Shown in pieces: positions 13,740-55,054 of a stretch of DNA of 64,000 nt (its first letter is position 1; each line of letters begins with the position of its first letter). The translations under genes were made by a program, and so were the position numbers. The stretch comes from Candidatus Nealsonbacteria bacterium (GTDB lineage Bacteria; Patescibacteriota; Minisyncoccia; Minisyncoccales; RBG-13-36-15). The notes under the pieces are model-generated. The model searched no databases. It saw only the letters and a list, made by a program, of their open reading frames with translations, and had not been told where the DNA came from. The DNA lies in NCBI GenBank assembly GCA_011050465.1, contig DRFQ01000009.1, positions 128,334 through 192,333 on the forward strand, read 5' to 3'.

Positions 13740-14027
13740 TTATTTTATTATCTCTTTTTCGTATTCGGGAAAATATTTACTAATCACGTTGAGGTTAAAC
13801 TCTCTAAGGATTGATTCTTTCGGTTCCCTTTCAAGCAAGAATTCAAAAGATTTTCTTACAAGTTCTTCCGGCGTGAGCTGACCGTGTGCTTGCCCTGAGC
13901 TTGTCGAAGGGGTTAATTTTTCCCAATATTCTTTATCAAGCGTTACTGCATATTCAATGTCATCAATCCCAACCAAAAAATTCCATCCACTCTCAATTTG
14001 TTCCTTTTTTTTAATTTCAACATCCAT
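13740..14027 (-). CDS. hypothetical protein (95 aa) carrying an in-frame GC-rich mini-repeat
   Basis: The PSTSSGQAHGQ segment is encoded by repeat copy 13888-13912. TAGAAT-N6-ATG start context. Confidence 0.5.
   Translation of the reverse strand: MDVEIKKKEQIESGWNFLVGIDDIEYAVTLDKEYWEKLTPSTSSGQAHGQLTPEELVRKSFEFLLEREPKESILREFNLNVISKYFPEYEKEIIK
13888..13912. repeat. GC-rich mini-repeat copy
   Basis: GCTTGCCCTGAGCTTGTCGAAGGGG, inside the ORF. Confidence 0.75.
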
Positions 14028-24831: not shown

Positions 24832-24869
24832 CGAAAAAATCGCTGTTTAGGCGATTAAATTTTCTTTAT

Positions 24870-24888
24870 CCTGAGCTTGTCGAACGGG
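24870..24888. repeat. GC-rich mini-repeat (partial copy)
   Basis: CCTGAGCTTGTCGAACGGG. Confidence 0.6.
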
Positions 24889-24907: not shown

Positions 24908-25462
24908 TTACAATCCAAGATCTTTATTAATTTTTTGCATTGCTTGAAGTCCAGTTTTAACAAATTCCTCTAACTTTATATCAAGTAATCCTTCGGATTG
25001 CTTAATAATTTCCCTATTTATCCCCCTGGCAAAAGCCTTCTCTTTAAAACGGTTTAAAACATTTTCTACAGTTAAATCTGTTATTTTTTTTGATGGTAAA
25101 ACTAATGTTGCCGCGACAATCAAACCAGTTAAAGGATCAATCGTAAAAAGGGCCTTGTCCATTGGAGCTTCTGGCTGAATCCCGTGAATTTCATTATGAA
25201 CCTTTACTGCCTGGCAAATTTCTTTACTTAATCCTGCCTCTTCAAGCATTTGAGCTCCAACTAAAGAATGCTTATTTGGATCATCTTTAGTTTTTTCATA
25301 ATCAATGTCGTGTAATAATCCGGCTATCCCCCATTGATCCTCATTTTCTCCAAGTTGGCGAGCCAAAGCCCGCATTACAGCTTCTACTGCCAAGCAATGC
25401 TTAATTAAATTTTGATTATCAAGATTTTGTTTTAATAATTCTAAAGCTTGATCTCTGTTCAT
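24908..25462 (-). CDS. HD-domain phosphohydrolase
   Basis: HCLAVE...LLHDIDYE. Confidence 0.85.
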   Translation of the reverse strand: MNRDQALELLKQNLDNQNLIKHCLAVEAVMRALARQLGENEDQWGIAGLLHDIDYEKTKDDPNKHSLVGAQMLEEAGLSKEICQAVKVHNEIHGIQPEAPMDKALFTIDPLTGLIVAATLVLPSKKITDLTVENVLNRFKEKAFARGINREIIKQSEGLLDIKLEEFVKTGLQAMQKINKDLGL

Positions 25463-36830: not shown

Positions 36831-36905
36831 AAGGTTATTTTAATTAATCTACCTTAATTTTGCCACTTTTGGATTATTTTGTCTATTTATCAAAGATCTA
36901 AATAC

Positions 36906-36935
36906 TCGACATTTGTCGACATTTGTCGACATTTT
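36906..36935. repeat. three 10-bp-phased TGTCGACA palindromes (iteron/operator-like)
   Basis: TCGACATTTGTCGACATTTGTCGACATTTT, 76-105 bp upstream of the methylase ATG. Confidence 0.8.
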
Positions 36936-36939
36936 CTTG

Positions 36940-36953
36940 AAATGTCGCACAAG
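36940..36953 (-). repeat. right copy of the 14-bp inverted repeat
   Basis: Plus strand reads AAATGTCGCACAAG, the reverse complement of 25499-25512. Confidence 0.85.
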
Positions 36954-36994
36954 ATGCGTTATGCGACGCACATCATGATTATACGTATCAGGGA

Positions 36995-37027
36995 AACAAA
37001 AAAGGCCTCTGGCTGGTGCCTGAGGCT
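36995..37027 (-). terminator. T1-family terminator (cassette a)
   Basis: Minus strand reads GCCTCAGGCACCAGCCAGAGGCC plus a T-run. The 30 nt at 36999-37028 are identical to 37464-37493. Confidence 0.8.
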
Positions 37028-37040
37028 AAGGAATTCTTGA

Positions 37041-37388
37041 TTAGAGGGCTGCGAAAAGTTCTTTTAGTGCAGGAAGCTCCTCTTTGCAAATAGTAAGGTG
37101 TCGAGATGGCCATCCGCCAAAACTCATTTTTGATTTATTCCCTATCAATAGTCTGTAATAGTATTCTTCTTCTACTAATCGTGCTACCCTTGGTGCTTTT
37201 TCTGTTGCTATGGAGCCTCTAAGCCGAACTTCTCCTACGATTCTTGTTTTATTTCCCCTTTCCTTTTCCATTTTTGGGTCTACTCTACGAATAGTCTCAA
37301 CGAAAGCTGAAATCGAGTGTGTTCCGCTTCTTCTTCTGGCAGAACGACGAGCACTTAGAACTATTGCACTTGTTGTTCTTTTTGCCAT
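37041..37388 (-). CDS. hypothetical protein (115 aa), cassette a
   Basis: Track ORF trimmed: the -10 box sits at 37432-37437, and GGAGGTGAAAACAATG gives MAKRTTSAIV... Confidence 0.55.
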   Translation of the reverse strand: MAKRTTSAIVLSARRSARRRSGTHSISAFVETIRRVDPKMEKERGNKTRIVGEVRLRGSIATEKAPRVARLVEEEYYYRLLIGNKSKMSFGGWPSRHLTICKEELPALKELFAAL

Positions 37389-37431
37389 TGTTTTCACCTC
37401 CACAGGTTGTATAAGAGCTATTTGATACTTC

Positions 37432-37460
37432 ACCCTATTACATCCTTAGTTTTTTGTCAA
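37432..37460 (-). promoter_or_regulatory. P1-family promoter (cassette a)
   Basis: Minus strand reads TTGACAAAAAACTAAGGATGTAATAGGGT. Confidence 0.65.
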
Positions 37461-37462
37461 AA

Positions 37463-37491
37463 CAAAAAGGCCTCTGGCTGGTGCCTGAGGC
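37463..37491 (-). terminator. T1-family terminator (cassette b)
   Basis: Identical hairpin to cassette a. Its T-run runs straight into the -35 of promoter a. Confidence 0.8.
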
Positions 37492-37534
37492 TATGGAAAG
37501 AACAAAAAAACCTTGTATTGTATGTGAAGGTTCT

Positions 37535-37777
37535 TTAATACCCCGTCGTAAAAATTGTAATCGTTATAAAAAACGATAATAATACATATAGTAAAATGAA
37601 GGTTCTCTTGCCTTCTTGCAACCAAAAGGTGAACGAGGCTATCCACATACTAACTGCCATAATAAAATGCAAGAAAATGGAACCAAAAAAGATATTTAAC
37701 ATACTCATAACAACCACAAAAAAAATAATTCTTAGGGCGATACTTCTCTTCTCTATACTTTGATCCATTGTCCTCAT
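37535..37777 (-). CDS. small membrane protein (80 aa, 3 TM), cassette b
   Basis: Hydrophobic throughout; own promoter and terminator. Confidence 0.55.
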   Translation of the reverse strand: MRTMDQSIEKRSIALRIIFFVVVMSMLNIFFGSIFLHFIMAVSMWIASFTFWLQEGKRTFILLYVLLSFFITITIFTTGY

Positions 37778-37813
37778 TTCCTAGTTTGGAACGAACTAAC
37801 GAAGAACTGCTTA

Positions 37814-37842
37814 ACTCTATTACAACCTTAGTTATTTGTCAA
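37814..37842 (-). promoter_or_regulatory. P1-family promoter (cassette b)
   Basis: Minus strand reads TTGACAAATAACTAAGGTTGTAATAGAGT. Confidence 0.65.
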
Positions 37843-37843
37843 A

Positions 37844-37867
37844 CCCTTCGATAAACTCAGGGTAAAC
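37844..37867. repeat. GC-rich mini-repeat copy (inverted orientation)
   Basis: CCCTTCGATAAACTCAGGGTAAAC, wedged between terminator c and promoter b. Confidence 0.6.
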
Positions 37868-37900
37868 AAAAAGGCCTCGATGCTCTGCTGAGCCGAGGCT
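37866..37900 (-). terminator. terminator (cassette c)
   Basis: Minus strand reads GCCTCGGCTCAGCAGAGCATCGAGGCC plus TTTTTGTTT. Confidence 0.7.
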
Positions 37901-37917
37901 TGTACAGAATATGTCTC

Positions 37918-38235
37918 TTAGTTCAAAAGTTTTTGAAGATCTTCTCCTTGTAGAACTTGCCGTTGACCTTCTGTTGGCTCAAAAGTTAGCTGTTCTGAAA
38001 CCCAGATAAATAGGGATCCTCTTTGAAGAAATCTTTCTCTTTGAAGAAAAATAAATCTTCCCTTTGGAGTTACGATCGAGACCTCACGGTTACAAAGATC
38101 GCTTGGTATTCCAAAGGGATCGCCGAACGTTACAACTTGAAGATCAGAAAGACTCAAAGCAATATTGTTGGTTGCTGCCAGTTTTTCTGCGGCTTTCATC
38201 TCTTCTGAAATTTCGGTTAGGTCGATTCTGTCCAC
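37918..38235 (-). CDS. hypothetical protein (105 aa), cassette c
   Basis: GTG start 6 nt after AAGGAGG. Confidence 0.55.
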   Translation of the reverse strand: MDRIDLTEISEEMKAAEKLAATNNIALSLSDLQVVTFGDPFGIPSDLCNREVSIVTPKGRFIFLQRERFLQRGSLFIWVSEQLTFEPTEGQRQVLQGEDLQKLLN

Positions 38236-38282
38236 GTTTCCCCTCCTTATTTAGGAATGAATGAACTAATTAACGATTTTTA

Positions 38283-38311
38283 ATTATATTACATCCTTAG
38301 TTATTTGTCAA
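38283..38311 (-). promoter_or_regulatory. P1-family promoter (cassette c)
   Basis: Minus strand reads TTGACAAATAACTAAGGATGTAATATAAT. Confidence 0.7.
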
Positions 38312-38451
38312 CTCAAAATAGCCCTATTTTTGGAAAAAATCAAATTCCTTCCCCACCCCGCCTATCGATATCTGTCTACCGACAAATCCACAAAAAATAC
38401 CATAGCGGGAACAAGCTAAAAAATTATTAGGGCTTTAACGACGTGCAACCG

Positions 38452-38480
38452 TTGACAAATCACTAAAAATATAATATGGT
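38452..38480 (+). promoter_or_regulatory. P1-family promoter (cassette d)
   Basis: TTGACAAATCACTAAAAATATAATATGGT. The 5'UTR (CTTATACAACGGAGGTAAAAACAATG) is homologous to that of cassette a. Confidence 0.65.
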
Positions 38481-38522
38481 TAGATATCAATAGATAGCCC
38501 TTATACAACGGAGGTAAAAACA

Positions 38523-38717
38523 ATGAAAGGAAGCGAAGTAGTAGGAAAGTGCCCACACTGTGGAGGAGACATTATTGACCGAAAAAAGCTCGTGGGTATA
38601 GTTGCCATTTTGATGCAAAGTCCGACACCAGAACTGGCTGTTGAAAAAATAACAGAGAATGAAAAGCCATATTTCTGCGGCGATTGTAGTGAGGAATTCG
38701 ACACTGTTCCGTCGTAA
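38523..38717 (+). CDS. zinc-ribbon protein (64 aa), cassette d
   Basis: CPHCGG...CGDC. Confidence 0.6.
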   Translation: MKGSEVVGKCPHCGGDIIDRKKLVGIVAILMQSPTPELAVEKITENEKPYFCGDCSEEFDTVPS

Positions 38718-38742
38718 CCGATTAGAGAGCTTTCGTTCATAT

Positions 38743-38776
38743 CCTCAGGCGCAAGCCAGAGGCCTTTTTTGTTTTT
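38743..38776 (+). terminator. T1-family terminator (cassette d)
   Basis: CCTCAGGCGCAAGCCAGAGGCC plus TTTTTTGTTTTT. Confidence 0.8.
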
Positions 38777-38847
38777 CTCTTGATCCCCTACCACTTTTTA
38801 TCTTTTATGTTTACATTCTATCTCAAACCTAAAAAAGTGGTGGGGGG

Positions 38848-38875
38848 TTGACTAAAGCTGTAGAAGAATTATCAT
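38848..38875 (+). promoter_or_regulatory. promoter of structured element copy 1
   Basis: GGTGGGGGGTTGACT-N16-TATCAT, about 85% identical to 44487-44520 on the minus strand. Confidence 0.6.
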
Positions 38876-38881
38876 TAACTC

Positions 38882-39079
38882 AGGAGAGAGGAGGTGGTCG
38901 CTTTTACCTTCGCGAACAACCCAGGCTGGGGCGGCCTGGGACGAATGACCTCCCTCTGGTCATTGGTCACTTTCTCTCTCCTATCAACTCTTTACAGTTC
39001 TTTCTACGACAAGCTCTTTGGGACGTATGTCCCACATCGCAGGGCCACCACCAACAACAACATCGGTGGCCTTTTTTTT
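38882..39079 (+). ncRNA. structured non-coding element, copy 1 (about 200 nt)
   Basis: 15-bp closing helix GGAGAGAGGAGGTGG / CCACTTTCTCTCTCC. Inner hairpins CCCAGGC/GCCTGGG and AATGACC/GGTCATT. 3' hairpin TGGGAC-GTAT-GTCCCA, then terminator GGCCACC...GGTGGCC plus T8. Confidence 0.5.
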
Positions 39080-39106
39080 GACAAATCATTAAGGATGTAA
39101 TATGGT
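39078..39106 (+). promoter_or_regulatory. P1-family promoter
   Basis: TTGACAAATCATTAAGGATGTAATATGGT; its -35 overlaps the preceding T-run. Confidence 0.65.
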
Positions 39107-39151
39107 TAAGTAGCAATAAACAGCACATTCCCAAGAAGAAGGGAATCAAAG

Positions 39152-39550
39152 ATGGCTCAAAGCCCATCGGAAATAGAAAAGAAAACCCGCCTTAAAGAAT
39201 TATGGATGTTACTATTTGGTAACCCAATCAATCTAACTGACCCCGAGATTGAAAGATTACTTGAGTCTGAAAAAGAACTTAGAACAATTTTGCATTTTAC
39301 CTACAGTGGATTTCCCCATCAGATAGAAAGAGTAAAAAAACATCATGCCAAAAAGAAAGAGCTATCTGAACTGCCTACAGAGAAGTTGGTGGAAATGAAA
39401 TGTGCGATAGAAGAAAATAGACTGGCTGTTCTTAGGTCAACCAACGAGGAAGAACTTTCAGATTCATTCTTTGAGGCTCCTCCCATTGACTCCAATGAAC
39501 ACATCCTGAATGAGATTCTAAAAGAACGGGGTGTTGACTGGCGAAAATAG
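39152..39550 (+). CDS. hypothetical protein (132 aa), cassette e
   Basis: Own P1 promoter and terminator. Confidence 0.55.
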   Translation: MAQSPSEIEKKTRLKELWMLLFGNPINLTDPEIERLLESEKELRTILHFTYSGFPHQIERVKKHHAKKKELSELPTEKLVEMKCAIEENRLAVLRSTNEEELSDSFFEAPPIDSNEHILNEILKERGVDWRK

Positions 39551-39588
39551 AAAGATTCTTAAACAGGCAATCCCGATTCGATATATAA

Positions 39589-39622
39589 GCCTCTGGCTCA
39601 CGCTAAGAGGCCTTTTTGTTTT
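39589..39622 (+). terminator. T1-like terminator (cassette e)
   Basis: GCCTCTGGCTCACGCTAAGAGGCC plus TTTTTGTTTT. Confidence 0.75.
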
Positions 39623-39720
39623 CCGGCTTGCCTCGGGCTTGAATTCTTTTATTTAACATGATAGGCTAAAAATCCAAACATAGCACCTTTACAGCTTAGA
39701 CCGAAAAGGGGGTAAGAAAA

Positions 39721-40293
39721 GTGAAATACCTCTTGTTGCTTTATCTAATCCAGCCCTACATAGATGTTTTCATTGGCGAAGAACCGCCCGACGTAAAGAA
39801 AAAATTTGCTGCCCTCTATAAAAAGATTGTGCGAGAAAGATATCCAGGGTTCCAAGTAGTTTGTGTATTTTTTTCTAAACCAAGCGAAAAAAAAGAACCT
39901 GACCTTTCTCAGAAGTGGGATATTTTTTCACTTGAAGAAAGCTATACTATAGAGGCCTGTGGAGTAACATTCGCTGATCATTGTGATAATCAAACATATC
40001 CCAAAGAAAACGACATTCTTGAATTATGTCCTGGCCCAATTGATGAATTGATTGTTAGCGGATTCCATTTTTCTGATTGCGTAGAAAAAATTGCCAAGTT
40101 TGCCCACAAGCAAGGCATTCAAGTTTTTGTAGATGAAGATCTAACAGAATTATTCTTTTATGGAATAAAAATGGGAGTTCCAATTTCTCGTGAAGCAAGC
40201 ATAAGAAGAACAAAAAAGTTGTTCAGAGAAAGTTTGCTTCTGGATTTTGTGCGCGAAAACCGTAAAGGGAGACCATGGCTGGTCCAGCTTTAA
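39721..40293 (+). CDS. hypothetical protein (190 aa), weak isochorismatase/cysteine-hydrolase-like C-terminal pattern
   Basis: GTG start after AAGGGGG. LIVSGFHFSDCVEKIAKFAHKQGIQVFVDEDL resembles the isochorismatase-fold core. Promoter CCTCGGGCTTGAAT at about 39633-39670. Confidence 0.5.
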   Translation: MKYLLLLYLIQPYIDVFIGEEPPDVKKKFAALYKKIVRERYPGFQVVCVFFSKPSEKKEPDLSQKWDIFSLEESYTIEACGVTFADHCDNQTYPKENDILELCPGPIDELIVSGFHFSDCVEKIAKFAHKQGIQVFVDEDLTELFFYGIKMGVPISREASIRRTKKLFRESLLLDFVRENRKGRPWLVQL

Positions 40294-40493
40294 GCTGAGT
40301 CACCAATACGACTTGGCTTTTTTTGTTCTTAATGACCAATAGTAGCTCGCCGTTTGTAACCTAAGAAGCCATGGATAATGGTCTGCTAATCTCTCGACTC
40401 CGCTCAGGGTGGTAAGCCTATCGAACCATTGGCTTAAGTTTGAGATGGAGGCAAGGATTTAATGCCCGAGAGTTGTTGCCCCTCGTGAAAAAC

Positions 40494-40522
40494 TTGACAA
40501 ATTCAAAGTATGGGAGTATAAT
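40494..40522 (+). promoter_or_regulatory. consensus promoter of structured element copy 2
   Basis: TTGACA-N17-TATAAT. Confidence 0.65.
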
Positions 40523-40528
40523 GCTATT

Positions 40529-40797
40529 ATTGACTGATATTCGTTCTTTTTGAAAAAATGTTGTCAGCTATTCAGCAAATTGTTCATCTGAAAAGGTGGT
40601 CAGCTTGCTGGACAGATGAAAGGAGACGTTCGCCAATAGCCCAAGATGGTGGAGCTGTCGCAGGCGCCGGCCAGCTTGGGCGCACTAGATCAACCAGATC
40701 ATCCGCGCGTATACCTGCCATCTGTTCGGCACAGCACTTTTCGAGGACTTATGTCCTCACCTATAGGGTCACCCATAACAACAACGGTGGCCCTTTT
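40529..40797 (+). ncRNA. candidate non-coding transcript sharing the 3' module of copy 1
   Basis: GAGGAC-TTAT-GTCCTC hairpin plus GGGTCACC..AACAACAAC..GGTGGCCC terminator. There are two compensatory changes relative to 39019-39071. Confidence 0.35.
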
Positions 40798-40829
40798 ACT
40801 TTCTACCTATCTTTTAGATGGGTTTTTGT

Positions 40830-40858
40830 TTGACAAATAACTAGAAATGTAATAATAT
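40830..40858 (+). promoter_or_regulatory. P1-family promoter
   Basis: TTGACAAATAACTAGAAATGTAATAATAT. Confidence 0.6.
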
Positions 40859-40903
40859 CGAATTAAATAGTACATTTGTCGCCATAACGACAAGGAGGTA
40901 GTA

Positions 40904-41083
40904 ATGGCGAACGAGATTTTATTATGCGGCGGCGCAGTTTTACAAGGCGTCGAGAGAGCGGTTGATGAGGGGGGTGAGGATCTTGTTGTCACCCTAGAAA
41001 ATGTAGGGACAGTTCTTGTTCCTAAAGGGAATATAGCAAAGATTGACATACTAATAGAAACCGAAGAAGAACCCGACGAATAA
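40904..41083 (+). CDS. hypothetical acidic protein (59 aa, below the track cutoff), cassette f
   Basis: AAGGAGGTAGTAATG. MANEILLCGGAVLQGVERAVDEGGEDLVVTLENVGTVLVPKGNIAKIDILIETEEEPDE. Terminator at 41124-41151. Confidence 0.55.
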   Translation: MANEILLCGGAVLQGVERAVDEGGEDLVVTLENVGTVLVPKGNIAKIDILIETEEEPDE

Positions 41084-41123
41084 ATAATTTCTAGTTCTTT
41101 ACTTACTATTCAATCCTTCTTCA

Positions 41124-41151
41124 AGGTCTCGCTCAGAGACCTTTTTGTTTT
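41124..41151 (+). terminator. intrinsic terminator (cassette f)
   Basis: AGGTCTC-GCTCA-GAGACCT plus TTTTGTTTT. Confidence 0.75.
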
Positions 41152-41171
41152 CAAAAGGAGTTATTGGGCTT

Positions 41172-41246
41172 GCCCTCCCAAATTCGCCGCAGAGGCGAAC
41201 TTAGGCGGGCTTGACTTATTTATTGAGGTTGTTATGATATAAAATC
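41172..41246 (+). repeat. 75-bp inverted repeat, left arm (hairpin plus promoter)
   Basis: GCCCTCCCAAATTCGCCGCAGAGGCGAACTTAGGCGGGCTTGACTTATTTATTGAGGTTGTTATGATATAAAATC. 74/75 identical to the reverse complement of 45285-45359. Confidence 0.9.
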
Positions 41247-41283
41247 GTAGAGGAAGGACAGCACTTTCAAGGAGGTTAAAAAG

Positions 41284-41568
41284 GTGGCAGAGACAACCGA
41301 AAACAAACGGCAAAGTGGACAAGTCAAAGATGGAAAATGGTTGGTGCTAACCGAGAGTACTAGAAAGCCAGACAAGTGCTATACACATACCTGTGGCACA
41401 GAAATTTTAGGCGAAAAAATAGCTCATCCTGTTTGGGATGGTCCGACTCCACTTTCTGGACACGGTCAGTGCGAATATGAAATGGTTCCTTATTGTCCAA
41501 AATGCGAAAATAAACCAAACCCTCAAGGGGTGCCGATAACTCCCAAGGGTAGCCATCGTAATCTTTGA
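41284..41568 (+). CDS. zinc-ribbon protein, paralog of 2054..2371
   Basis: GTG start 8 nt after AAGGAGG; shared C..CG..IL...VPYCP.CE..P pattern. Confidence 0.6.
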   Translation: MAETTENKRQSGQVKDGKWLVLTESTRKPDKCYTHTCGTEILGEKIAHPVWDGPTPLSGHGQCEYEMVPYCPKCENKPNPQGVPITPKGSHRNL

Positions 41569-41752
41569 CCTAATTACTTTATAGGTTCTTGGTAGAAGTT
41601 CTTTTAATTAATCCGATATAAACCGCAATCCGGCTCAAGGTCCTCCCGACACTCGTCAGGAGGCTTTTTTATTTCCCCGATACGCTCACAGGACAGAAAC
41701 TAAAAAAAACGGCACGAAATTATCGTACCGACCAAAACAGCAACACGTATTT

Positions 41753-42724
41753 TTAATGTACCTGCTTTTGCCTGATTATTTCCCGCAATACTCCCTCAAC
41801 TAATTTCAGGCTTTTTTCGTCTATTATAGAGACAGCCAGCACTTCTTTTCCTGTTTTTTTGAGGAGGGCCATTTTCTTTTTAATGTCTTTTTCGGGCAGT
41901 AAGTCGGTTTTGGTCAGAAAAACGTATTCCGGCTTTAATAAAAGCTCCTTATTGTAAACCTCAAGTTCATTCCTGATGGTTTTGTAGTCTGCCAAAGGAT
42001 CTTGGGATTCAGACGAAATAAAATGGAAAAGGATTTTTGTTCTTTCAATGTGCCGAAGGAATTTAATGCCTAAACCCTTGCCTAAAGAAGCTCCCTCAAT
42101 AAGGCCCGGGACGTCAGCCAAAACGAGCCCGTAATAAACTCCCAAGTTGGGATTCAGGGTCGTAAAAAGATAATTAGCCACTTTACTTTTAGCCTTGGTC
42201 AGCTCGTTTAATAAACTGGATTTACCGACATTCGGCAAGCCGACAAACCCAACATCAGCTATCATCTTCAATTCCAATCTCAATTCGTATTCCTGCCCCA
42301 AAGAACCTTCTTCAAATTCCCTGGGAGTCGTATTAATAGATGATCTAAATTTAAAGTTGCCCCGCCCTCCTTTGCCGCCTTCAGCCATCAATGAACGCTG
42401 CCCTACAAAAACAATTTCTGAATCCTGTTTCAAGAACAAATTATGAATGACCGTACCCACGGGTACCTTTAAGAAAAGGTCTTTACCGTCTGCGCCGTCG
42501 TTGAATCCCTTTTTGCCGTTTTCCCCATTTTCAGCTGACAGTTCTTTTTTGTAGCGAAATTGATTCAAAACACTTAGATCAGAAACCCCTTCAAGATAAA
42601 CACTGCCTCCCCGACCGCCGTCCCCACCGGTAGGCCCGAGAGTCATTTTAACCTTACTGAAAGCCACGGCCCCCCTGCCGCCGTCACCAGCTTTCACCCT
42701 AATTTTGACGTCGTCAATCAGCAT
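41753..42724 (-). CDS. obg: GTPase Obg
   Basis: Gly-rich Obg fold (GGDGGRGG, GGKGGRGN) and GLPNVGKSS G1 motif. Confidence 0.93.
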   Translation of the reverse strand: MLIDDVKIRVKAGDGGRGAVAFSKVKMTLGPTGGDGGRGGSVYLEGVSDLSVLNQFRYKKELSAENGENGKKGFNDGADGKDLFLKVPVGTVIHNLFLKQDSEIVFVGQRSLMAEGGKGGRGNFKFRSSINTTPREFEEGSLGQEYELRLELKMIADVGFVGLPNVGKSSLLNELTKAKSKVANYLFTTLNPNLGVYYGLVLADVPGLIEGASLGKGLGIKFLRHIERTKILFHFISSESQDPLADYKTIRNELEVYNKELLLKPEYVFLTKTDLLPEKDIKKKMALLKKTGKEVLAVSIIDEKSLKLVEGVLREIIRQKQVH

Positions 42725-42898
42725 ATTATTTAATTATTTTGCGCGTGGACTATAAAGCAACCTTATAATATCATATAATCCATAGATGCTAGAAGCCCAT
42801 ACATCTGGCATAGATTGTACGCTTTTTCATATAGCCTTATCCTGGATTTTTACTTGCTTTTTTATATATTTTTCCTATAATTAAAACGGAAGACAAAA

Positions 42899-43117
42899 AT
42901 GACAATAGAAACTATTTTTGATATTATAGGTTCCATCTCTTTCTTGATTATCGCAATATTTATCTGTGTCACATTTTACTATTTAATTAAAATCCTTAGA
43001 GATATTTCAAAAATAACCTACCGATTTCGCGAAAAAAGTGAGCAATTTGCAGGTTTAATTACAGCTCTAATAGCAATGCTTAAAAAGACAATAATCGGCA
43101 GAAAAAAAAGAAAATAA
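42899..43117 (+). CDS. small membrane protein (72 aa)
   Basis: One TM helix followed by an amphipathic helix. Confidence 0.5.
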   Translation: MTIETIFDIIGSISFLIIAIFICVTFYYLIKILRDISKITYRFREKSEQFAGLITALIAMLKKTIIGRKKRK

Positions 43118-43137
43118 TAAATATAAATATTAACAAT

Positions 43138-43470
43138 ATGACAGTCCAAAAAACCACAAAAAAAGGAACAGGCAAAAAAATATTGGCAGCCGCGATTTTG
43201 GGTGTGCTTGCCGGAATGCTGTTAGCTCCCAAGGCTGGCAAAAAACTAAGGAAGGATCTGAAAAATATTGCCCAAAAGATGGAGAAGGAGATAATTCGAC
43301 AGGCCGGAAGAACCAAGAAGCTAACTCAAGGAAAATATGAAGATATTGTGGAAACGATGGTCAATTCTTATACCAAGGCGAAAAAGATTAAAAAAGAGGA
43401 TGTGAAAGCGATAACCAGGAACCTCAAAAAAATCTGGATTGACTTGGTAAAGAAGATAAAATCGAGATAA
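43138..43470 (+). CDS. YtxH-like protein
   Basis: ILGVLAGMLLAPKAGKKLRKDLK. Confidence 0.7.
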   Translation: MTVQKTTKKGTGKKILAAAILGVLAGMLLAPKAGKKLRKDLKNIAQKMEKEIIRQAGRTKKLTQGKYEDIVETMVNSYTKAKKIKKEDVKAITRNLKKIWIDLVKKIKSR

Positions 43471-43510
43471 GCTTCGTGCAATTAATGGTTGATTTTTTAC
43501 CCCAGCGTGC

Positions 43511-43538
43511 GTCACGCTGGGTTTTTTCTTGCTCTTCT
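43511..43538 (+). terminator. intrinsic terminator
   Basis: CCCAGCGTG-CGT-CACGCTGGG plus TTTTTTC. Confidence 0.8.
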
Positions 43539-43632
43539 CCTATTTTTAGAAAAAGACGAATTTGTTCAATGGGACAAAAAAAAGCTCGCCGGAATGGCGA
43601 GTTTTAAAACGCAAAATTAACTAAGGTACTAT

Positions 43633-43875
43633 TCATAGACAAAAATAGCTGCCCAGACCATTACTCCAAGGGATGTAAATACTGTACTTTATCTTTCCTA
43701 ATCCATCGCAATACACACATTGGCTAAAGATACATTCAGGACAATTATCAGGCACGCCGCTGCGTTCGCAGCTTACATTTAATCTACCTGTACCGTTACA
43801 CATTATGCAAGGTTTTCCGCGCCAGTTCTTTAAAAACGTTGTAATAGCCTTCAATATATTCCTTATTGCCGTCAT
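43633..43875 (-). CDS. DnaJ-type CxxCxGxG zinc-finger protein (80 aa)
   Basis: CIMCNGTGRL and CVYCDGLGKI. Start moved to the ATG 8 nt after GGAGG. Confidence 0.6.
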   Translation of the reverse strand: MTAIRNILKAITTFLKNWRGKPCIMCNGTGRLNVSCERSGVPDNCPECIFSQCVYCDGLGKIKYSIYIPWSNGLGSYFCL

Positions 43876-44023
43876 ATTCTCCACCTCCAAGTTGGGAATG
43901 TACTGATTTCCTTGTCCCGTAGTAGAGAAAAATCTCGTTCAGGGGTTTGAAAGGATGAAGTTGGTTGGTCGCCACGGATAAACCTTACTGCCTATTCGAT
44001 TCCTTGACCTTCCAACCCCATCC
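43876..44023 (-). ncRNA. structured 5' leader (motif X, copy 2)
   Basis: GCGGATGGGGTTGGAAGGTCA...GCGACCAACCAACTTCATCC is homologous to 9700-9800 on the minus strand. Confidence 0.4.
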
Positions 44024-44029
44024 GCATTC

Positions 44030-44058
44030 AATTTATCTTTAATCTGGACGATTGTCAA
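44030..44058 (-). promoter_or_regulatory. consensus promoter
   Basis: Minus strand reads TTGACA-N17-TAAATT. Confidence 0.6.
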
Positions 44059-44135
44059 TATAAAAAGCCCGAAAAACATTTTATGTGGAGGCAAAACATT
44101 TCTTTGGAAACAAAAAACCCGCGTTAGAGACGGAG

Positions 44136-44171
44136 CAAAAATAGTAAGAGCTCATCTTATGATGAGCTCTT
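44136..44171 (-). terminator. intrinsic terminator
   Basis: AAGAGCTCATC-ATAA-GATGAGCTCTT plus ACTATTTTT on the minus strand. Confidence 0.8.
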
Positions 44172-44307
44172 GAGCAATGTGCCCTTGTGCGTCTTCCGGC
44201 TGTTCTCCAACCGGAGCTTCTGCATAAAGAGTTGCAAGCAAAGGAAGGTGAAGAAGACATGGATCCTTCCTAATCAGTTCTATGATTTTCTTGAAAACAT
44301 TTATCAA
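44152..44307 (-). CDS. possible 51-aa protein downstream of structured element copy 3
   Basis: TTG start 9 nt after AGGAGG. (M)INVFKKIIELIRKDPCLLHLPLLATLYAEAPVGEQPEDAQGHIAQELIIR. The stop lies inside the terminator stem. Confidence 0.3.
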   Translation of the reverse strand: MINVFKKIIELIRKDPCLLHLPLLATLYAEAPVGEQPEDAQGHIAQELIIR

Positions 44308-44351
44308 TTCGGTTTACCTCCTTTCCTGCAATCATTCTTAAAAGAACTAGT

Positions 44352-44480
44352 AGGAGAGAGAAAGTGGCAGGGTTATGGGGGGAACACAGCAGGTCACGTG
44401 CGTTCCCGTGGCACCTTGGGTGAAGGTGATAGCTCTCTCTCCGCGTGAAGAGGGAGGTCAAGAACCACCTTCTCTCTCCC
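44352..44480 (-). ncRNA. structured non-coding element, copy 3 (acts as a 5' leader)
   Basis: 15-bp helix GGAGAGAGAAGGTGG / CCACTTTCTCTCTCC encloses a divergent 97-nt core with GGGAAC/GTTCCC and CACCTT/AAGGTG hairpins. Confidence 0.45.
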
Positions 44481-44486
44481 AAGTTA

Positions 44487-44514
44487 ATTATAGCTCTTCT
44501 ACATTTTTAGTCAA
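44487..44514 (-). promoter_or_regulatory. promoter of structured element copy 3
   Basis: Minus strand reads GGTGGGGTTGACT-N16-TATAAT. Confidence 0.65.
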
Positions 44515-44688
44515 CCCCACCACCAATCCTAGGTTAGTCTATTGAACTTACAACGACTTAAGCCGATAGGCGGCTTCGCCTTATGGCTTTTTTAAATTCA
44601 TCATGCCTTGGCTGGGACTGGTGGGGGGCCAAGAAACAAACAAAAAGGCCTCTTGGCATAAGCCAGAGGCTATAAAAAGATTGGTTTT

Positions 44689-45207
44689 TCAATGATTCAC
44701 CGCTCTTAACGTTTCCTCTTCTAATCTAGAGATAAGATCTTGATTAGCGTTAAAAAAGTAGCGATGTGTCCTTCCTTCTTTTTCTATGCGAATCAAATTT
44801 GCTCTCCGAAGATTACCCACCATTCCCCAAACAGACCTTCTGGTTAAGTATCTTGCTTCGGCAATATCTTTTATGGTACAGCCAGGGTTTTTTATAATAT
44901 AAAGCAGAGTGAAACCTTCTGTGGTGAAAAATTGGCGTTCGGGAGAATTATTGTCTGCATTTTGTATAATATCTAAAGGGTTACGGCTGGCAGAGTGATA
45001 GTGTTTTCTACCTATTTTTTCAAAAGATATATATTCCCCTTGAATTAAGAGACATGTATGGTCAAAAAATCCCCAGACAGTTCGTCTGGTCAAACCCAAG
45101 GCATCGCCAATCTGAGAAACTGTTGGTTCTTCTCCTTTTTGATTTTTTTGTCTAATAAAAAAGTAAACCGAACCAACGGTTGACAGAAGCCGAATATCTT
45201 CTCCCAT
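44689..45207 (-). CDS. tandem winged-helix (HTH) DNA-binding protein
   Basis: Two repeats: VSQIGDALGLTRRTVWGFF and IKDIAEARYLTRRSVWGMVGNL. Confidence 0.7.
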   Translation of the reverse strand: MGEDIRLLSTVGSVYFFIRQKNQKGEEPTVSQIGDALGLTRRTVWGFFDHTCLLIQGEYISFEKIGRKHYHSASRNPLDIIQNADNNSPERQFFTTEGFTLLYIIKNPGCTIKDIAEARYLTRRSVWGMVGNLRRANLIRIEKEGRTHRYFFNANQDLISRLEEETLRAVNH

Positions 45208-45284
45208 CGTTCTCTCCTTTCCTTGTTCGCCTTTTTCGCAGCTACTCTCTATTCAATTAGGAAGGTACAGACCCTCCTGCCTAT

Positions 45285-45359
45285 GATTTTATATCTTAAC
45301 AACCTCAATAAATAAGTCAAGCCCGCCTAAGTTCGCCTCTGCGGCGAATTTGGGAGGGC
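45285..45359 (-). repeat. 75-bp inverted repeat, right arm
   Basis: Reverse complement of 41172-41246 with one mismatch in the -10 box (TAAGAT versus TATGAT). Confidence 0.9.
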
Positions 45360-45375
45360 AAATTTAAGAAACCCT

Positions 45376-45831
45376 TTATTTCCTTATCCAGCCTTTTAGT
45401 CTTTCCCAGAAGTTTTTGCCGGCTTTGGAAACTTCTTCTTTTATTTCCTGCTTTTCTTTTTCTAACTCCCTGGGTATTGCTTCTTTTCTTTTTTCCACTT
45501 CTTTATTAAAAATACCAAAAATCTTTTGCCATATCCAATCAACCTTGGGCCAGATTTTAGAATCCCAGATGTCTATGAACCAATTCGCCATTCTTTGCCA
45601 AATCTCTACAGCTTGCTGCCAAACTCCCTTTACGGCCCTTGGTAAAGGTTCAATGATTTTTTTAACAAAAGACCAAACTTCCTCAAAAGTCTCTGGCACC
45701 TTCGGCGACTGCTTTACGTCTTGAGCCAAAGCGAAACTTGGCAGGAGTAAACTAAAAACAAAAAACAAAAAACAAAAAACAAGGAACGGGGAGCGAGACT
45801 CATTATTGATTATTCTTTGTTCTTTATTCAT
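45376..45831 (-). CDS. secreted/membrane-anchored hypothetical protein (151 aa)
   Basis: N-terminal hydrophobic segment; Trp-rich helical body. Confidence 0.55.
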   Translation of the reverse strand: MNKEQRIINNESRSPFLVFCFLFFVFSLLLPSFALAQDVKQSPKVPETFEEVWSFVKKIIEPLPRAVKGVWQQAVEIWQRMANWFIDIWDSKIWPKVDWIWQKIFGIFNKEVEKRKEAIPRELEKEKQEIKEEVSKAGKNFWERLKGWIRK

Positions 45832-53490: not shown

Positions 53491-54939
53491 TTATTTCTTC
53501 TTTCTTATTTCGATATGCAACTCTCTTAATTGTTCTTTTTCAACCTCTGACGGTACTCCCATCATTGGGTCTCTGGAGTCTCCTGTCTTTGGAAATGCCA
53601 TCGTTTCCCGAATATTCTTTTCATTTCTTAAAATCATCAATAATCTTTCCAATCCCAGGGCTATACCGCCGTGAGGAGGTACCCCATACTCAAAAGCTCT
53701 AAGTAGATGGCCAAATTTCTCTTTTATTTCTGGTTTTTTGTGACCCATTACTTCAAAAATTACTTCAAGTATTTCTGGTCGGTAAGATCTTAAGCTTCCC
53801 CCGCCAATTTCAGCGCCATTCAAAACAAAATCATACTGAAAAGCCAAAACTTTTTCGGGGTCTGCTTTAATTTTCCTGATATCATTTTCTTTAGGACGGG
53901 TAAATGGATGGTGACAAGCTACCCACCTTTTATCGTTCTTTGACCATTCAAACATCGGAAAGTCATAAACTATGACAAAAGCCAGTTCCTCTGAATTTTT
54001 TTTATTTTTTCTTAAATCTGGCCTGTCGGTCTTGTATTTTTTTATTACTTCTTTATAAGTTAATTTTGGGAAGGGAATTTTTAGAATTCTCTTTTCTGGA
54101 AAAGTTTTTCTAACTATATGAATATAAAGATTCTCAATCAATTTTAAAATATCCTTTTGTTCAATAAACGACATCTCAATATCTATCTGGGTAAATTCTG
54201 CCTGGCGGTCGGCCCGAGGGTCTTCATCTCTAAAACATCTGGCTATTTGAAAATATTTTTCAATTCCGCCAACTATTAAAAGCTGCTTGTATTGCTGAGG
54301 GCTTTGAGGCAAGGCATAGAATCTCCCGGGCTGTAATCTCGAAGGAACTAGAAAATCTCTTGCCCCTTCTGGGGTAGATTTGGTTAAAATCGGCGTTTCA
54401 ACTTCAATAAAATCTTCATTAAATAGAAATTCCCTCGTTGCCTGAATTACTCTTTGTCGAGAGATTAAATTCTCTTTCATTCTTTCTCTTCTTAAATCTA
54501 AATAACGGTATTTTAATCTTTTTTCTTCTGAAATTTCGTAACCGGAAGTTTCAATAGAAAAAGGTAAGGTTTTAGCTTTTGAAAAAACTTCTAACCTTTC
54601 GGGTTTGAATTCAACCTGGCCGGTTTCAATTTTGGGATTTACCATTCCAGGTGGCCTCTTTTGAACTTTACCCTCTATACCAATCACCCACTCTGATCTC
54701 AAGCTTTTTGCCAGCTCATAGAGATTCTCTTGTCTGGGGTCTTGCCCTGAGCCATTCGGTACTGAGCTCATGGCCGAAGTGCTTGTCGAAGGGGTAAAAA
54801 TTACTTGTAAAAAACCCGACCTGTCTCTTAGATCAACAAAAATGATTTTACCGTGAGATCTCACGGTATTAATCCAACCTGCAACTTTTACCTTTTTCCC
54901 TAAGTATTTTGGAGTTTCTTTGTTAAGAATTCTTTTCAT
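53491..54939 (-). CDS. aspS: aspartate--tRNA ligase (compact type) with an in-frame repeat-encoded insertion
   Basis: FRDEDPRADRQAEFTQIDIEMSF (motif 2) and GGIALGLERL (motif 3). Start at ATG 54939 (TATAAT-N6-ATG). Confidence 0.92.
   Translation of the reverse strand: MKRILNKETPKYLGKKVKVAGWINTVRSHGKIIFVDLRDRSGFLQVIFTPSTSTSAMSSVPNGSGQDPRQENLYELAKSLRSEWVIGIEGKVQKRPPGMVNPKIETGQVEFKPERLEVFSKAKTLPFSIETSGYEISEEKRLKYRYLDLRRERMKENLISRQRVIQATREFLFNEDFIEVETPILTKSTPEGARDFLVPSRLQPGRFYALPQSPQQYKQLLIVGGIEKYFQIARCFRDEDPRADRQAEFTQIDIEMSFIEQKDILKLIENLYIHIVRKTFPEKRILKIPFPKLTYKEVIKKYKTDRPDLRKNKKNSEELAFVIVYDFPMFEWSKNDKRWVACHHPFTRPKENDIRKIKADPEKVLAFQYDFVLNGAEIGGGSLRSYRPEILEVIFEVMGHKKPEIKEKFGHLLRAFEYGVPPHGGIALGLERLLMILRNEKNIRETMAFPKTGDSRDPMMGVPSEVEKEQLRELHIEIRKKK
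54741..54794. repeat. GC-rich mini-repeat, split copy with a nested 29-nt insert, inside aspS
   Basis: CTTGCCCTGAG-[CCATTCGGTACTGAGCTCATGGCCGAAGT]-GCTTGTCGAAGGGG encodes PSTSTSAMSSVPNGSGQ on the coding strand. Confidence 0.75.
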
Positions 54940-55054
54940 TGGCTCATTATAACGCAAGATTTTTGGGATATCAAGCATGATTTACCGGTAAAAAGAGCGC
55001 CTTTTGACGCTCTTTTTTGTTTATTTTATATAAAAACTAAGGCTCAGGTAAAGT

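Follow-up and report, generated by a model that had tools for sequence, protein, structure and literature searches.

The stretch of DNA analysed here, referred to throughout as the window, comprises 64,000 nucleotides (nt) of a contig from a Candidatus Nealsonbacteria bacterium and has a G+C content (GC) of 36.5%. It carries several copies of a short G+C-rich repeat, one of which lies in frame within aspS, the gene for aspartyl-tRNA synthetase (AspRS; 53491..54978, reverse strand). From Pfam and structure alignments the enzyme is of the bacterial type without the GAD insertion domain, and the gene is ordinary and intact. As stated in an earlier note made from the sequence of the window, it keeps all class II motifs, the catalytic core being complete (tRNA-synt_2, PF00152, positions 1-307 of 308, E = 6.6e-114), and the oligonucleotide/oligosaccharide-binding (OB) fold that forms the anticodon-binding domain is recognised by PF01336 (E = 1e-16). 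The match to Thermus thermophilus AspRS (E = 8e-136) skips from query residue 331 to Thermus residue 417, where the GAD domain of ~110 amino acids (aa) is missing. The 120 best AspRS homologues, all of the candidate phyla radiation (CPR) type and mostly ~465 aa long (range 449-513), are likewise without it. The start annotated by NCBI is probably M13 at 54942, giving 482 aa, and an AspRS from a Candidatus Nealsonbacteria metagenome-assembled genome (MAG; P0001) is 100% identical to that of the window. No RNA genes were found in the window by Rfam at the gathering score or by ARAGORN.

Copies of the repeat in the window

Read in the sense orientation of the copies that lie within genes, the consensus unit is CCCTTCGACAAGCTCAGGGCAAG(C), with a length of 23-24 nt. 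Five clear copies are present where about none would be expected by chance. In pattern searches of the window against shuffled controls, the 23-mer with up to three mismatches was matched twice (0.00 expected), an 18-mer core four times (0.02 expected) and a 13-mer core seven times (1.4 expected), and none of the shuffles attained the observed count at any of the three lengths. All five sites listed in the earlier note are present, with corrected coordinates. On the reverse strand, an intergenic copy with three mismatches (2840-2862) is preceded by partial repeats of the TTGTCGAA half (AAGCTTGTCGAATTTGTCGAATGTG; 2814-2838), an exact 23-mer occupies 13889-13911 and is extended by a C to a 24-nt unit (13888..13911), and a decayed intergenic copy with four mismatches (24865-24887) lies 20 nt past the stop codon of the gene at 24908..25462 and adjoins a terminator-like hairpin (24838-24856). 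The single forward-strand copy (37844-37866) is intergenic and decayed, each of its four mismatches being a change from GC to AT, and the fifth, on the reverse strand, is the split copy inside aspS (54740-54794). Two of the five are thus coding, and the density of the repeat is ~1 per 10 kb. A candidate sixth copy, which we list with low confidence, is a decayed member of a sister sub-family (40400-40429, reverse strand), in which ATGGTTCGATAGGCTTACCAC and the widespread form ATGGTTCGACAGGCTCACCAC share 19 of 21 positions.

The forward-strand copy provides an empty-site control between genes. It belongs to one of three paralogous promoter/terminator modules, where it separates a terminator-like hairpin from the -35 box TTGACA (37842-37837) and stands a single base from the promoter-like TTGACA-17-TAGAGT. 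The paralogous modules at 37436 and 38287 show a clean 22-nt gap where the copy stands, and no target duplication was seen at this paralogous empty site.

The composite insertion in aspS

The segment within aspS (54740..54794, reverse strand) is a composite in-frame insertion, seen in alignment as a 54-nt indel. An outer 24-nt unit, CCCTTCGACAAG^CTCAGGGCAAGA, is split at the position marked ^ by a nested 30-nt imperfect palindrome (54752..54781, reverse strand; CACTTCGGCCATGAGCTCAGTACCGAATGG in the sense direction), and a C-run on either flank leaves the edges of the indel uncertain by a few bases. Its product is the 18-aa peptide STSTSAMSSVPNGSGQDP, rich in Ser, Thr, Gly, Pro and Gln. The insert has a GC of 59%, compared with 36% in the remainder of aspS, which bears out the earlier observation that the repeat is more G+C-rich than its surroundings. 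The same note had described a copy split by a 29-nt palindrome and adding about 20 residues between N-terminal strands of the OB-fold. The split, the palindrome and the extra residues are all there, with the nested part 30 nt long and the added residues numbering 18. The placement within the OB-fold is also right, except that the insert lies between strand beta3 and the following helix and so is not strictly flanked by two strands.

Comparison with other AspRS proteins identifies the segment as foreign to the family. The AspRS structures solved for Thermus, E. coli, Mycobacterium and other organisms all lack the segment and have a 19-residue gap exactly at TSTSAMSSVPNGSGQDPRQ, with the rest aligning at the E-value given above. 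Ninety-five of the 120 best homologues have a compact loop, FTP-KNE-LY, with no insert. In the protein alignment one member of the same 90% cluster (P0242) is 94.6% identical outside the gap, which corresponds exactly to the residues STSTSAMSSVPNGSGQDP, 18 in number. In DNA, empty alleles have the sequence TTC ACC CCC AAA, and all of the filled alleles examined start at the same base after ACY CC, with insert lengths of 24, 48, 51, 54 and 102 nt; the 24-nt insert of P0006, for example, is CCTTCGACAGGCTCAGAACAGGCT. Judged from these alignments, the segment is an insertion and not native AspRS sequence, as the earlier note had proposed.

The 25 carriers among the 120 homologues are scattered over a quick neighbour-joining tree made with the loop masked, requiring 21 parsimony changes, and the clade of the window's own AspRS alternates between filled and empty alleles. 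Repeated gain, precise loss and exchange of alleles are inseparable here, yet each of them makes the site dynamic. On this sampling of sequences, a loop filled in about one-fifth of related orthologues is a recurrent or uniquely tolerated site and not a one-off. In an AlphaFold2 model built from 79 homologues (mean predicted local distance difference test score, pLDDT, 80.8) the insert falls between the strand at residues 43-48 and the helix at 69-78, that is, at the beta3/helix junction of the OB-fold, and has pLDDT <50, making it a low-scoring loop in an otherwise confident model. It is therefore predicted to be a disordered surface loop, and is probably harmless. If the insert is translated, the tryptic peptide to be expected from it is SGFLQVIFTPSTSTSAMSSVPNGSGQDPR.

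The nested 30-nt element probably belongs to a sister sub-family, CCCTTCGGCCnnGAGCTCAGGGCCGAAnGG, as a decayed copy, an assignment to be made with moderate confidence from its sequence. Its standing as a family of its own is left as a suggestion: a pattern scan of viral contigs gave 25 matches, a total estimated to be at about chance level, and palindromic look-alikes made up only 4-5 of the 25. The nearest filled relative of the window's AspRS (P0004; L277 188-1624) has in the same loop a different, 39-nt G+C-rich insert that contains the hairpin CCCGCTGAAGCGGG and has only the 3' end, GGGCAGGATCCC, in common with the insert described here.

A second coding copy in the gene of a 95-aa protein

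The exact copy lies in a gene (13740..14027, reverse strand) for a conserved small protein of the Patescibacteria, 95 aa long, with 2,714 homologues and no Pfam match. Here the 24-nt unit (13888..13911) follows the codon ACC and encodes PSTSSGQA in frame. Most homologues have the loop EKLT-GGKI-TPEEL, and the window protein has EKLT-PSTSSGQA-HGQL-TPEEL. The peptide PSTSSGQAHGQ, which had been attributed to the element, is thus present, but on comparison with 120 homologues the insert amounts to PSTSSGQA alone and HGQL represents the ancestral loop. Three near-identical strains differ at the repeat alone within this gene: in one (L129, 491-537) an otherwise ~99.7%-identical gene has a second tandem 24-nt unit, CCTTCGACGGGCTCAGGGCAAGCT, in another (L130, 137-153) the unit has suffered a 15-nt deletion, and in the third (L131, 432-470) the copy is rearranged. 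More distant homologues have related inserts in the same loop, such as HSTGSGQAE, RSTSSGQAG and HSTGSRQASSGQAGQ.

The low complexity of the peptide and the tandem duplication of the 24-nt unit in a sister strain might suggest that such loops grew in place by slippage, with the resemblance to sequences elsewhere being convergent or due to chance. This is very improbable, since the identical 23-mer stands at unrelated loci of the window where about none is expected, the repeat recurs in hundreds of unrelated genomes (see below), and the aspS insert has a GC far from that of its gene.

Proteins of the 95-aa family also vary at a second place, after 'LVEV', with such G+C-rich-looking inserts as GPPAGG, GPPRLGEAGE and DSGSGQG (homologues P0128, P0138, P0139, P0162 and P0182), which suggests that other mini-repeat families exist.

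Distribution across bacterial phyla

The repeat is far from confined to the window; such confinement would have spoken against a small invasive element. The exact 22-mer occurs in at least 120 stretches of GTDB species genomes, and the first 80 of the matches listed already come from at least 17 phyla, including Pseudomonadota, Acidobacteriota, Planctomycetota, Bacteroidota, Chloroflexota, Cyanobacteriota, Deinococcota, Spirochaetota, Elusimicrobiota and the Patescibacteria, which account for 20 of the 80. Cultured isolates with the 22-mer include Sphingopyxis granuli NBRC 100800, Citromicrobium bathyomarinum, Chakrabartia godavariana and Microcoleus. The exact 19-mer core is found in at least 120 IMG/VR contigs with a GC ranging from 34 to 72%. 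In other phyla a doublet form is common, CCGTTCG-core-spacer-inverted core-CGAACGG, which is absent from the window; its 70-nt version has matches in complete plasmids from Moraxella osloensis, Sphingobium and Comamonas, all of them in spacers without annotation. No real match to the repeat was found in 5,426 complete E. coli genomes, and cultured phages are essentially free of it. Rfam has no family that models the repeat, relaxed thresholds giving only a sub-threshold similarity to AaHKsRNA41 (RF02901; ~30 bits against a threshold of 97).

In ~23 IMG/VR loci (for example L036 2196-3332 and L075 573-1865) the repeat lies 3-31 nt from the capsid open reading frame (ORF) in HK97-type head modules resembling those of gene transfer agents (GTA), with capsid, portal, terminase and DUF2460 genes, and it may occupy a conserved spacer position in these modules. 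The recurrence of such phage or GTA head genes near copies is a result of the make-up of the viral collection.

Two further explanations were considered. In the first, the insert is an artefact of assembly or library construction, or is removed as a mini-intron or bypassed by the ribosome before or during translation; a yeast mitochondrion is known in which ribosomes bypass short G+C-rich inserts. There is no direct support for any of these in the present case, although ACCCC flanks the aspS insert on both sides. We consider them hardly credible, given that proteins with the insert are found in independent NCBI, JGI, ENA and Logan assemblies, that the repeat is present in cultured isolates and complete plasmids, that decayed copies exist, and that coding copies have lengths divisible by three, are free of stops and favour one frame. 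The second is that the loop, or the motif itself in RNA or DNA, has been exapted and is now of use to AspRS or the cell, for instance as a linker, as a loop that binds a partner or as a signal for regulation or processing. The extreme conservation of the unit across phyla, the filling of the same loop in 25 of 120 AspRS orthologues and the frequency with which the repeat adjoins terminators and promoters would all agree with a function of this kind. We nevertheless regard exaptation, which had been offered in the earlier note beside simple tolerance, as improbable and found no support for it: the 94.6%-identical AspRS P0242 manages without the insert, the length and sequence of the insert vary freely among orthologues, it is predicted to be disordered, and copies decay toward AT and come and go between strains.

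Coding copies and their reading frame

Counts of copies within ORFs were restricted to loci with a GC below 48%, where ORFs can be trusted. Among these, 21 of 47 copies (~45%) lie within long ORFs; 20 of the 21 are in the sense orientation, and 15 are read in the P-S-T-S-S-G-Q frame (P = 5e-7 if the five open frames were used equally, the sixth containing TGA). Biases of frame and of orientation, both raised in the earlier note, are thus present. All of the coding copies are 3n long, free of stops and open in frame. The bias to one frame makes sense only if the inserts are translated, and PSTSSGQA is the most linker-like of the peptides that the repeat could encode.

Three histidine-kinase genes (Pfam HisKA/HATPase_c) on contigs syntenic with the window carry sense, in-frame copies; in the paralogous histidine-kinase genes upstream of aspS on related CPR contigs (L125 6819, L126 7856 and 9498) each copy reads PSxGSGQA. 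Further host genes with sense, in-frame copies appear to be those for polynucleotide phosphorylase (PNPase), alanyl-tRNA synthetase (AlaRS) and a DnaK-like protein, and a second site in AspRS also carries the repeat, these being recognised from motifs rather than by a family search.

A frame bias within genes has also been reported for the sequences by which some bacteria recognise DNA for uptake, and CPR bacteria are thought to depend on DNA uptake. The repeat, which is short and over-represented, could accordingly be an uptake or recognition signal, comparable to the uptake signal sequences and DNA uptake sequences (USS/DUS) or to Chi and KOPS, and enriched through biased uptake or repair and not by insertion. 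We give this explanation very little weight. Uptake motifs arise by substitution and are specific to lineages, whereas copies of the repeat are indels relative to empty alleles, with no substituted native sequence, and are the same in at least 17 phyla; the density in the window is also low for such a signal.

Anatomy of the unit and footprint of insertion

Across 129 distinct genome copies, a C precedes CCTTCG... in 95% and a C follows ...CAAG in 74%, and for this reason the unit is given as 23-24 nt. Beyond these two positions and a weak GA at -3/-2, which derives in part from nested copies, no conserved flank was found among the 129 copies that would indicate a preferred target. The cleanest footprints are in microsatellites: in a (CAACTGT)n array of Microcoleus and a (GGATAAA)n array of a member of the Bacteroidia, taking out exactly 23 nt brings back the 7-nt period, and these are therefore 23-nt insertions without target duplication. 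Copies also occur in tandem (array loci L146 249-294, L148 1684-1729 and L178 4719-4816); the period is 24 nt in one MAG each of the Flavobacteriales and the Anaerolineales and 38 nt in one of the Deltaproteobacteria. In a Pseudomonadota MAG copies are nested within relatives at TCGA^CAAG.

Pairing within the unit is limited to CCCT/AGGG, a stem of 4 bp. An initial idea, suggested by peptides such as PFVVSLSNHER, was that the repeat is a hairpin with a conserved loop and a covarying stem; it was rejected as a general rule, stems extending beside the core by 0.78 nt compared with 0.51 nt in controls. Complementary flanks of at least 6 bp are found in 6% of copies and 1% of controls, as expected if some copies entered pre-existing hairpin loops. 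Two RNA families provide hosts of this sort. A Candidatus Sulfotelmatobacter MAG has two Acido-Lenti-1 RNAs (RF01687; L161 6668-6737 and 6875-6944), each with 25 nt in place of the 1 nt that the model allots to the terminal loop of hairpin 1. In a Candidatus Nealsonbacteria MAG (JACPGX010000005; L153 3154-3521) the 22-mer stands in the P12 region of a gene for RNase P RNA (class A, RF00010; 114.9 bits against a Rfam threshold of 100), in the orientation opposite to that of coding copies. The repeat is a passenger in the Acido-Lenti-1 and RNase P RNAs and not a family member.

Such footprints could also be left without any transposase-like enzyme, if repair or replication copied a short patch from an existing copy, through a switch of template at stalled forks or through microhomology-mediated break repair, and the result then spread by ordinary horizontal transfer and recombination. 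Insertions at C-runs, microsatellites, hairpin loops and existing copies are insertions at places prone to fork stalling or slippage, there is no target duplication, the ORFs near copies include no associated enzyme gene, and CCC microhomology is present at both junctions in aspS. Junction microhomology was, however, seen neither at the 95-aa gene nor in the two microsatellite insertions, and templated copying leaves unexplained why one sequence should be found letter-perfect in at least 17 phyla. We judge this route rather unlikely.

Probable origin and movement of the repeat

The aspS segment is probably a copy of an ultra-short interspersed selfish repeat of 23-24 nt that is moved in trans. 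The repeat would have entered aspS at the C-run after the Thr codon that closes strand 3 of the OB-fold, and this copy would later have been struck in its own middle by a 30-nt relative; the ribosome would read the composite insert through as 18 extra residues, leaving the core of the enzyme untouched. New copies would come in as the G+C-rich consensus and then decay toward A+T. Copies are found between genes as well as in hairpin loops, in microsatellites and in genes for structured RNAs and for proteins. Coding copies would survive if they were 3n long, in sense, in the P-S-T-S-S-G-Q-A frame and in loops able to take residues, and the same loops of AspRS and of the 95-aa protein would be filled repeatedly because selection keeps only such copies. 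The unit is too small to encode anything, and we infer that its copying or movement must be provided in trans; the enzyme or repair process responsible would insert it without target-site duplication, probably into single-stranded or structure-prone DNA.

The description of the element as invasive, made in the earlier note, is supported by near-identical strains that differ in its presence or copy number, by the empty paralogous site in the window, by nested and tandem copies, and by exact 23-nt insertions elsewhere. Its toleration is supported by the position in a disordered loop and by the strong bias to one mild frame.

Several points weigh against this explanation. An all-versus-all BLASTP comparison of 4,191 ORFs within 3 kb of ~240 copies revealed no mobilising enzyme, no autonomous parent and no recurrent neighbour gene apart from the phage or GTA head genes. 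The insertion is reconstructed from sequence comparison, in which a gain looks the same as a precise loss. The scatter of filled AspRS alleles is that on a quick tree, and recombination between strains could mimic mobility. Retention of the insert in mRNA and protein is likewise presumed. The inserts measure 23 nt in microsatellites but 24 nt in genes. Finally, a unit that is letter-perfect across phyla is hard to square with purely neutral selfish DNA, and the sequence may have a function.

A bolder version of the selfish-repeat explanation is possible, if doubtful. The 23-mer CCCTTCGACAAGCTCAGGGCAAG would be a pan-bacterial mobile element, the smallest known and an order of magnitude below MITEs (miniature transposable elements with inverted repeats), and it would be kept letter-perfect by a widespread trans-acting machinery that recognises exactly this sequence and inserts it seamlessly into single-stranded or structured DNA. 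Candidates for such a machinery would be a single-strand transposase of the HUH/Y1 type, a primase-polymerase or reverse-transcriptase system with a conserved template, or a recombinase. Its by-products would be eight-residue PSTSSGQA linkers in essential proteins and additional loops in RNAs, that of RNase P for instance.

Comparison with known elements

By behaviour, the closest analogues appear to be the Rickettsia palindromic elements (RPEs) and the GC clusters of mitochondria. RPEs are non-autonomous, are found in frame in many unrelated housekeeping genes as well as between genes, and are translated as surface segments compatible with the fold (PMC10969869). The repeat shares their frequent in-frame entry into unrelated protein genes and their toleration at the protein surface. 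It differs in size (23-24 nt and 8 aa, as opposed to ~100-150 bp and ~30-50 aa), in being barely palindromic (CCCT/AGGG) where RPEs form a long hairpin, and in its letter-perfect presence in at least 17 phyla where RPEs are confined to Rickettsia and relatives. The fungal mitochondrial GC clusters (GC42 of yeast, the M-class, the ultra-short invasive elements of Podospora and the double-hairpin elements of Allomyces) are short G+C-rich inserts that are polymorphic between strains and move by an unknown mechanism (PMC4478555). Like them, the repeat is a short G+C-rich insert in A+T-rich DNA, occurs in single and in tandem or merged copies, and shows presence/absence polymorphism. GC42, in contrast, is a hairpin of 42 nt (~30-50 nt for the type) with an AG/TAG target signature, is mostly intergenic and is mitochondrial, while the repeat is bacterial and often coding, and has no real hairpin and no conserved target or duplication.

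The repetitive extragenic palindromic sequences (REPs) are of the same size class, 20-40 nt, and the inverted doublet with its spacer, widespread in other phyla but absent from the window, may be comparable to the REP doublets forming hairpins (REPINs). REPs are extragenic, however, whereas the repeat lies in ORFs in the proportions given above for low-GC loci and for the window. They are imperfect palindromes with a 5' GTAG, and CCCTTCGACAAGCTCAGGGCAAG has no GTAG, a stem of only 4 bp and weakly enriched local stems; they are also species-specific, and the identity of the repeat across phyla argues against lineage specificity. No recurrent transposase was found near the ~240 copies elsewhere, and no gene for a REP-associated tyrosine transposase (RAYT) was seen, although no search was aimed at RAYT. 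The lack of a target duplication, together with a preference for hairpins or single-stranded DNA, would be compatible with 'peel and paste' transposition of single strands. With MITEs such as Correia/NEMIS, ERIC, BOX and RUP the repeat has in common that they are non-autonomous and interspersed, can form in-frame fusions and carry promoter- or terminator-like signals. MITEs are 50-500 bp long and have terminal inverted repeats and target-site duplications from a parent insertion sequence; the repeat has none of the three. Its ends, CCCTTCG... and ...GGGCAAG, do not form an inverted pair, and the ACCCC on either side of the aspS insert is out of register with the 54-nt indel. Full-text literature searches with the DNA sequence of the repeat and with the peptides of all six frames brought up no prior description of it, with most subscription journals lying outside that search, so that an earlier description is possible.

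Implications

The interest of the case lies in the element and not in aspS, as an ultra-short repeat found across phyla that writes eight-residue linkers into essential genes. If the selfish-repeat explanation is true, selfish DNA of just 23 nt can spread through most of the bacterial tree, including the tiny and gene-dense genomes of the CPR, in which close to half of the copies lie within genes. It would supply essential proteins (aminoacyl-tRNA synthetases, the apparent PNPase and the apparent DnaK-like chaperone) and RNase P RNA with new loops and linkers from a concrete and datable source, and would amount to a natural experiment on which protein loops tolerate insertion. For annotators, the peptides 'SGQA', 'LSLSKG', 'FDKLRA' and 'LRQAQG' would be footprints of the repeat. 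The question raised is what machinery moves 23 nt, and what holds the sequence identical across phyla while single copies decay; cultured carriers (Sphingopyxis, Citromicrobium and Moraxella) make it testable.

Other features of the window

The part of the window from 36900 to 45400 has few long ORFs, a raised GC and families of repeated promoter/terminator modules. Within it a 97-nt inverted repeat (41154-41250 versus 45281-45377, 91% identity) brackets ~4 kb that include the gene for an Obg-like GTPase (41753..42724).

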